DNA of 4,367 nt from a virus (Duplodnaviria; Heunggongvirae; Uroviricota; Caudoviricetes): IMG/VR virus record IMGVR_UViG_2671180435_000008; one strand, given 5' to 3'. Shown piece by piece: positions 3,958 through 4,367 of the stretch. The first letter of the stretch is position 1; each line of letters begins with the position of its first letter. The notes under the pieces are model-generated. The model saw only the letters and a list, made by a program, of their open reading frames with translations. It did not search any database and had not been told where the DNA came from. A program made the translations under genes and the position numbers.

Positions 3958-4353
3958 TTAATCATCATTAATATCTTTCATATTCAATTTGCAATTTTCG
4001 TAGGTCACTCCCGACTCGCCATTAACATTAACTCCAGCTCTGATATTCCCGTTTTCTTTTACATCTACAAAAAACTGGCCTCTTGGCATCTTGAACGCAA
4101 ATGTAAAACCAACAGTATCTGAATCAAAATCATCATCTTTATATATTGGGATCAAAAATGTCATCGTCGCTGGTGATGCATTGTTTGCAAAATCAAATAC
4201 ACCTATACTTTTGCCGAATTCATAAGAAGCTTTTCTCAATATAATCGCACCGCTGGCAGAAGGGGATGGGCACGATATCCTCAGTTGTCTGAATCCATCT
4301 GTATCCAAGTCAACGTCATTATCTGCAGATGTTTTAACGGGTAATGACTCCAA
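3958..4353 (-). CDS. AT-rich hypothetical ORF of unknown function, probably a 5'-disrupted gene remnant next to IS1
   Basis: 131-codon ORF at about 36% GC, against about 57% for neighbouring phage genes. It has no ATG: the track start is a TTG that lies inside the IS1 terminus (4351-4353), and the first in-frame ATG would leave only about 68 codons. No family was recognised from the translation. It has its own intrinsic terminator. Confidence 0.35.
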   Translation of the reverse strand: MESLPVKTSADNDVDLDTDGFRQLRISCPSPSASGAIILRKASYEFGKSIGVFDFANNASPATMTFLIPIYKDDDFDSDTVGFTFAFKMPRGQFFVDVKENGNIRAGVNVNGESGVTYENCKLNMKDINDD

Positions 4354-4367
4354 CTTATTGATAGTGT
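4340..4367 (-). mobile_element. Terminal 28 bp of a second IS1 copy in inverted orientation; body lies right of the window
   Basis: Positions 4340-4367 read GGTAATGACTCCAACTTATTGATAGTGT, the exact reverse complement of window positions 4-31, i.e. the same IS1 insB-proximal terminus facing inward. Confidence 0.8.

Follow-up and report, generated by a model that had tools for sequence, protein, structure and literature searches.

Under the Juhala/Hendrix definition, a moron is extra DNA of deviant composition that brings its own terminator and its own promoter (PMC3594210). The moron gp15 of phage HK97 lies beside the tape measure gene and blocks genome entry (Cumby et al. 2012, summarised in PMC3594210), the T5 Llp/Cor proteins are periplasm-facing disulfide lipoproteins that are encoded next to the receptor-binding protein and jam FhuA (PMC9586334), and T4 Imm binds the tape measure protein of a contractile-tailed phage (bioRxiv 10.64898/2026.03.06.709160). 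Two of these three entry-blocking precedents are encoded beside entry genes. Here, we analysed a 4367-nt stretch of caudoviral DNA (IMG/VR record IMGVR_UViG_2671180435_000008, hereafter "the window"), in which an AT-rich segment beside the baseplate genes is very probably, in identity as well as anatomy, the pseudogene of an exported moron-type cargo protein that was truncated by the insertion sequence IS1, as comparison with intact relatives indicates.

A cargo gene between tape measure and N

Positions 3958-4339 of the window have a GC content of 37.4% versus 54.5% for positions 32-3911, and GC at third codon positions is 31% in this AT-rich remnant versus 55% in the neighbouring N gene, in agreement with the compositional drop that a first-pass annotation of the window had described. 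That annotation had assigned the whole of 3958-4367 to the AT-rich locus, of which 3958-4339 is indeed an AT-rich gene but 4340-4367 is IS1. Its 131-codon open reading frame (ORF) is likewise listed at 3958..4353 on the minus strand (131 aa, TTG start), but the TTG and the first five codons (MESLP) belong to IS1, so that the genuine remnant consists of 126 codons (V35-D160) and the stop codon. An ATG start is truly absent, although for another reason than had been thought, since intact copies natively start with GTG.

The AT-rich stretch is found without IS1 in 11 complete Escherichia coli genomes at 97.5-100% identity. The intact gene (483 nt, encoding the 160-aa hypothetical protein WP_000594909.1) sits between the tape measure gene and N of a prophage that combines HK97-type head genes with a Mu-type tail; E. 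coli STEC309 is one carrier of the intact gene. Its GTG start codon lies 8 nt past a GGAG and 67 nt past the tape measure stop codon, and 46 nt separate its end from the N start codon. The remnant in the window is 100% identical to the corresponding part of the copy in E. coli FDAARGOS_944 (L001, gene at 12059-12541 on the minus strand).

How the gene was broken can be read from a related viral contig (L059), the N gene of which is 100% identical to that of the window. The order in this contig is tape measure gene, cargo codons 1-36, a 768-bp IS1 (2305-3072, with the ends GGTGATGCTGCC... and ...GGAGTCATTACC) and the remainder of the cargo gene, and the IS1 is flanked by the 9-bp duplication CGTTAAAAC at 2296-2304 and 3073-3081. 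The full length of 768 bp, the known terminal inverted repeats and the 9-bp target duplication of an IS1 insertion are thus all present in L059. The same IS1/cargo-gene junction occurs in the window, where the break falls within codon Asn34, and the missing 5′ part is found beyond the IS1 in L059, which confirms the earlier suggestion that IS1 had entered the 5′ end of the gene. The anticipated in-frame continuation past the element was also recovered from this contig: deleting the IS1 together with one copy of the duplication yields an ORF that agrees with the intact E. coli gene at every position (0 mismatches). Because the copy in the window is devoid of a start codon, a ribosome-binding site and a signal peptide, it is a pseudogene. 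The features of the window are as follows.

1..31, no strand: IS1 end, terminal 31 nt (...GGAGTCATTACC), inside baseplate J; 100% match to the L059 IS1 end, inverted-repeat arm at 4-31
32..515, minus strand: 5′ fragment of baseplate J/gp47, cut by IS1 and with 107 bp missing internally (junction ~91-93); Pfam Baseplate_J, E=1e-10
508..918, minus strand: baseplate gene of the phage GP46 family; Pfam GP46, E=4.5e-33
924..1457, minus strand: Mu gp45-type baseplate assembly protein V; Pfam Phage_Mu_Gp45, E=2e-26
1435..2523, minus strand: Mu gp44/P-type baseplate hub protein; Pfam GpP-like_1st, Gp44-like_2nd and GpP_4th
2520..3911, minus strand: Mu N-type DNA circularisation (tail) protein, downstream of the cassette; Pfam DNA_circ_N, E=3e-36, with the same annotation in the 11 E. 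coli genomes
3912..3929, minus strand: cassette-borne ribosome-binding site (GGAG) and spacer before the N start, read from the sequence, in place of the ~15-nt spacer of empty-slot prophages
3930..3952, minus strand: intrinsic terminator of the cargo gene (AAGCCGCCAGAAATTGGCGGTTT, then a T-run); RNAfold ~ -12.8 kcal/mol
3958..4339, minus strand: cargo-gene remnant (pseudogene); 0 mismatches to intact L001 12059-12440, PHROG 5586
Parts of the remnant, minus strand: stop codon 3958-3960, codons V35-D160 3961-4338, last base of N34 4339
4331..4339, minus strand: one copy of the 9-bp IS1 target-site duplication (CGTTAAAAC, minus strand); same 9 bp on both sides of the IS1 in L059
4340..4367, no strand: IS1 end, terminal 28 nt, of the copy inside the cargo gene, which it disrupts; match to the L059 IS1 ends

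Of 50 E. coli genomes hit by a probe for the tape-measure/N junction, about 40 have no insert between these genes. In such empty slots the genes are ~15 nt apart (L004; 15 nt from the stop to the N start in STEC276), whereas they lie ~600 bp further apart in the 11 gene-bearing genomes, and the same pattern is seen among viral contigs. Because homology of the flanks ends in the last tape measure codons and resumes at the N start, the inserted unit amounts to ~600 bp, and it contains an AT-rich leader, the gene, a terminator and a new ribosome-binding site for N. The terminator reported in the first pass was recovered as a 10-bp stem with five GC pairs and a T-run (3952-3930, minus strand) located 5 nt past the ORF; three terminator-like sites were found in the region versus 0.5 expected from shuffled sequences.

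The ~600-bp segment is a moron-like cassette in which three of the four hallmarks of a moron are observed, namely extra DNA between genes that are adjacent in related phages, deviant composition (the GC contrast given above) and an own terminator, which is absent from the empty slot. This bears out the earlier proposal of a moron-type cargo gene, with close relatives that have tape measure and N nearly abutting and others that hold an AT-rich cassette with a terminator between them. As to the fourth hallmark, no sigma-70 consensus site that could serve as an own promoter was found in L001, and the best upstream promoter matches in 16 representatives were no better than those in shuffled sequences (p = 0.07-0.8).

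Slot context and protein family

The gene has the same position, with the tape measure gene on one side and N on the other, in phage vB_EcoM-720R4 (URC09681.1, 50% identity), in a Yersinia prophage (74%) and a plasmid-borne prophage, and in 41 of the 41 viral contigs that were recovered with a subfamily profile, the flanking tail proteins of which are ~50-70% identical to those of the window. All tail-slot relatives have a slot gene with a GC fraction of 0.34-0.43 versus 0.48-0.59 for the surroundings, and a strong hairpin with a T-run, followed by the ribosome-binding site and start of N, is located 3′ of the gene in 17/17 representatives examined. Between pairs of loci, slot-gene divergence tracks the divergence of N (Mantel r 0.49) and that of the tape measure C-terminus (0.55), and N and the tape measure C-terminus show about the same correlation with each other (0.44). 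Allele swaps are also clear (L017 and L044, with N 90% identical and the slot gene 43%). Synonymous divergence of the slot gene is below that of N within each close group, which suggests that the cassette spreads among related phages. From these comparisons the cargo gene is a long-term resident of this phage group that is specific to the tail slot, and not a one-off foreign insertion. The alternative offered in the first-pass annotation, a fragment of an unrelated AT-rich locus, finds no support.

The most distant members of the family (24-28% identity) are located outside tail operons (L006 740-1270, L007 2919-3413 and L008 1-452), where they adjoin genes for IncFII-type RepA, ParA, MazEF or Gp49/HTH toxin-antitoxin systems and CI-like repressors, in neighbourhoods that continue with RecA-dependent nuclease and DUF1064 genes. 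By this gene content the loci look like phage-plasmid maintenance regions. The three distant copies are not AT-rich (GC 0.49-0.52). Given the position of distant members in plasmid-maintenance/repressor regions, the gene is mobile cargo and not part of the tail machinery. In L063, a prophage with 96% identity elsewhere, the same tape-measure/N slot (1920-2375) is taken by an unrelated protein of 151 aa, with a textbook lipobox (LAG-C, Asp at +2) and without a Pfam or PHROG assignment. Judging from these predicted products, the tail slot tends to hold envelope-directed cargo.

Other irregularities were seen among the relatives. The gp44/P homolog of L018-L022, L024 and L029 starts ~1.9 kb past the end of N instead of abutting it (about 8820-10750), which suggests a further putative insertion between N and P in this subgroup. 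No gene was called in L009 (Yersinia enterocolitica) over the ~1.5 kb expected to hold the tape measure (4491-6001), and an ATG upstream of the family gene is out of frame with its MMLISCC start; this Yersinia prophage may also be degraded.

The first-pass annotation had recognised no family for the protein. This holds for Pfam, NCBIfam and PADLOC, where no match was obtained (E≤10 for Pfam and PADLOC; 0 PADLOC defence families), and for PDB sequences searched with the single protein or a 23-sequence profile, but PHROG 5586, a family of unknown function, was matched over the whole length of the protein (E=1e-88). PapF-type pilins, the best PDB matches at E=1.3, aligned over a short "CPxxS" stretch only and were taken as chance.

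The family is represented by only 9-16 clusters in a set of 5.8 billion proteins, an exhaustive profile search gave 19 representatives only, and its members, from E. coli/Shigella, Yersinia, Pantoea and metagenomes, range from 24% to 100% identity across dozens of loci. Giant repeat proteins of the cadherin/Big type (P0018, P0021 and P0025) that appeared in a deep profile search were discarded as spurious: the matches cover 35-70 residues, mostly ~35-40, in Cys/Ser/Thr-rich repeats, and their multi-stretch alignment through a short C-x-x-x-S-A-S...S-Y-x-F pattern was judged compositional. A narrower-alignment scan of genome contigs returned only a degraded fragment in Pantoea haifensis, which adjoins ORFs that, read from their translations, resemble copC/copD-type copper-resistance genes.

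By inspection, all full-length members start with a cleavable signal peptide ending in ...A/K (basic n-region, hydrophobic core, small-x-small site), which in the branch of the window reads MIKPFLMTVAILTS-C-CAQA/K. Scored by the canonical four-residue pattern [LVI][ASTVI][GAS]C, a lipobox is present in the intact E. coli/Shigella copy (AILTS-C, Cys15) and in Yersinia (LIS-C) but in no other branch, and it competes with the signal peptidase I site AQA/K; as the lipobox is confined to the window's own branch, lipidation would be branch-specific at most. The copy in the window has lost the lipobox/signal-peptide region altogether. The intact product is predicted, from its Sec signal peptide, to be exported to the cell envelope, and an exported protein cannot become part of virions, which assemble in the cytoplasm.

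Exactly two cysteines of the mature part (C57 and C150) are kept in all full-length members, which also share the conserved core F-x-F-K-M-P-x-G-Q-F-F-V. The ratio of nonsynonymous to synonymous substitution rates (dN/dS) is 0.15-0.43 for the slot gene versus 0.05-0.12 for N, which argues for a real and constrained protein that evolves faster than its structural neighbour. An AlphaFold2 model with a helix and eight strands reached a predicted local distance difference test score (pLDDT) of 84.4 and a predicted template modelling score (pTM) of 0.77, a confidence that needed the addition of distant relatives, as pLDDT was 41 with eight close sequences only. The mature ~140-aa protein is accordingly modelled as an N-terminal helix followed by a predicted eight-stranded up-and-down beta-barrel with one conserved cysteine pair. 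Structural matches are to generic barrels, including uncharacterised MoaF-like proteins, the Tp0751 lipocalin-fold, the Cap15 barrel, a type VI secretion system immunity protein and avidins, and Foldseek searches against PDB and BFVD gave nothing at E<0.01. The fold class of the model is clear, yet it assigns no function.

Insertion sequences and decay of the prophage

The window comprises 4308 nt of prophage DNA between two inverted copies of the same IS1 end. All genes are on the minus strand in the order N, gp44/P, gp45/V, GP46 and the 5′ part of J/gp47, and strong Pfam matches for all five mark them, at the level of sequence families, as the baseplate block of a Mu-type contractile tail. 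The bounding ends are perfect 28-nt inverted arms (4-31 and 4340-4367) that correspond to sequence annotated as IS1-family transposase in thousands of E. coli records and to the termini of the complete 768-bp IS1 in L059. The second IS1, in baseplate J, is also present in L059 as a full, inverted copy (about 7485-8252) with the 9-bp duplication GGGGGCGCA. One of the two targets is AT-rich and the other GC-rich, so that the two sites lend nothing to the preference of IS1 for AT-rich targets that had been invoked earlier.

The two copies in the window are inverted with the same end inwards, a geometry that resembles a composite transposon. Because each IS1 copy in L059 has its own 9-bp duplication, the two are read as independent simple insertions. 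Inversion or transposition of the intervening segment by the two inverted copies was considered and rejected, as both are simple insertions in the colinear prophage of L059, the one contig on which this judgement is based.

The J fragment of the window is missing 107 bp (corresponding to L001 8093-8199) which all related copies retrieved (L001, L010, L015, L058 and L059) contain. Bordered by a 3-bp GAT microhomology, the deletion causes a frameshift, which explains why the J ORF of the window encodes 162 aa versus 224 aa in other IS1-bounded contigs (L011-L015). A database entry for Shigella sonnei (CST24788.1, "Uncharacterised protein") is exactly the truncated 131-aa product of the cargo gene, which is encoded on at least 21 contigs with a length of 2-5 kb and IS1 at the end. 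Most probably, therefore, the window comes from short-read assembly of a Shigella strain, probably S. sonnei, that carries this insertion in fixed form. With a second IS1 and the 107-bp deletion in baseplate J besides the dead cargo gene, the sequence gives the picture of a prophage that is decaying generally.

In E. coli FDAARGOS_944 (L001), the same prophage adjoins a frameshifted ipaH effector gene (1525-3166), and copies of ISEc60 interrupt the prophage sheath and portal genes (16470-23373). This strain could belong to Shigella or to the enteroinvasive E. coli.

Candidate roles and known systems

As a role for the intact protein, periplasmic superinfection exclusion or receptor masking is proposed tentatively, as the likeliest of the candidates considered, from the positional and localisation analogies with HK97 gp15, T5 Llp/Cor and T4 Imm. 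The protein would act in the periplasm of the lysogen or the infected cell, where entry of related phages would be blocked at the receptor or tail-penetration step, or the envelope would be modified otherwise. Transcripts without antitermination would end at the terminator, and Q-modified late transcription would pass it into the baseplate genes; phages of the SfV group have been reported with a Q antiterminator (PMC3851460). The wider reading, in which PHROG 5586 and its relatives form an uncharacterised class of periplasmic beta-barrel superinfection-exclusion proteins of temperate Enterobacterales phages with Mu-type tails, is doubtful. If it holds, the gene would be kept beside the tape measure gene for the ability of its product to recognise the tape measure/tail-tip complex of an incoming phage, or else the envelope factor which that complex uses, and alleles would be exchanged between phages in an arms race.

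Some of the same evidence could also fit a lysogenic-conversion or fitness factor that acts apart from phage exclusion, for which an exported barrel, either a lipocalin/avidin/MoaF-like calycin or a Tp0751-type adhesin, would bind a small ligand or host factor and alter the envelope, serum resistance or host interaction in the way of lambda Bor and Lom. The generic calycin-type matches do include ligand binders and the Tp0751 lipocalin-fold adhesin, an AT-rich gene with a terminator resembles the classical conversion morons (PMC3594210), and the distant members in putative phage-plasmid maintenance regions are expected to be expressed in the carrier state. We nevertheless consider a conversion factor unlikely, because a single strict slot between two tail genes, held while the tail proteins are ~50% identical, fits a function linked to the tail or to entry better, because the gene has been left to decay in Shigella lineages, and because no homology to any known virulence factor was detected in Pfam, NCBIfam or PADLOC. 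Another candidate is a lytic-cycle accessory protein that is co-transcribed with the tail operon and would serve as a lysis modulator or in T5 Llp-like receptor masking on the infected cell and its debris, which would save progeny from being lost, a reading that overlaps mechanistically with exclusion or receptor masking and differs mainly in timing. It accords with the lack of a detectable independent promoter, with the short spacing, shared orientation and co-divergence of the gene and its tail neighbours, and with the precedent of T5 Llp, but it is distinctly unlikely given that the strong terminator right after the gene, absent in empty-slot phages, is best explained by nearby-starting transcripts that are not antiterminated, and that distant homologs are located in non-structural regions.

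A periplasmic peptidoglycan-hydrolase inhibitor like MliC, PliC or PhiA, which would shield the lysogen from animal lysozyme or neutralise incoming tail lysozyme, is a further candidate; T4 Sp neutralises the tail-associated lysozyme of incoming phages. This is very unlikely here, as MliC/PliC/PhiA appear at rank 21-36 among the generic barrels, below uncharacterised proteins and avidins, there is no Pfam MliC match at E≤10 and no PDB profile match, and conservation of the S-x-S-G stretch does not extend to the distant members. That no real gene exists, with the frame arising by chance in AT-rich junk or as the tail end of the tape measure gene, might be suspected from the 131-codon frame of the window with its non-ATG start and lack of a Pfam family, but is next to impossible in view of a full-length gene that is conserved over 24%-100% identity with dN/dS below 0.45, a signal peptide, invariant cysteines and a confident fold. 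A C-terminal part of the tape measure gene in particular was rejected, since this is a separate gene under purifying selection that starts 67 nt past the tape measure stop codon with its own ribosome-binding site and signal peptide.

The copy in the window is one more case of IS1-driven gene loss and matters little by itself; the family is already catalogued, though uncharacterised, and a tail-operon moron that encodes an envelope protein is of a known kind. The weight lies with the family, a rare exported protein that is confined to Enterobacterales and keeps a fixed position in the tail operon despite tail proteins that have diverged to ~50% identity. Its constant terminator, its faster evolution than the structural neighbours and its allele swaps are typical of genes in phage-phage or phage-host conflict. 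Its single gene encodes 160 aa and a homolog occurs in the sequenced phage vB_EcoM-720R4, which makes the family a cheap and well-defined candidate for exclusion assays.

Among described entities, PHROG 5586 and the "hypothetical protein" WP_000594909.1 are the cargo family itself, as entries without a function, of which the copy in the window is the IS1-truncated form. MliC/PliC/PhiA have no sequence or profile similarity to the cargo protein, and their functional loop motifs are not conserved across the cargo family. T4 Imm is a membrane protein unrelated to the cargo protein in sequence or fold; as an exclusion factor that acts at the envelope on an incoming tape measure, it offers a possible functional analogy through the position of the cargo gene on the tape-measure side. 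T5 Llp/Cor measure ~60-80 aa and bind FhuA, whereas the members of the cargo family are twice that size, mostly without a lipobox and without detectable homology to them, but both are phage proteins that are exported, face the periplasm (for the cargo protein, as predicted) and have genes next to those of the entry apparatus, with an intramolecular disulfide (for the cargo protein, as predicted) and, in the branch of the window, a lipobox. HK97 gp15 itself is a small YebO-like inner-membrane protein for which promoter and phenotype have been demonstrated, whereas the cargo protein is a predicted ~140-aa soluble or lipid-anchored periplasmic barrel with no sequence similarity to it. In genomic setting the two are alike, each a single small gene in the tail operon by the tape measure gene, of deviant composition, absent from close relatives and with a product that is, or for the cargo gene would be, an envelope and not a virion protein.
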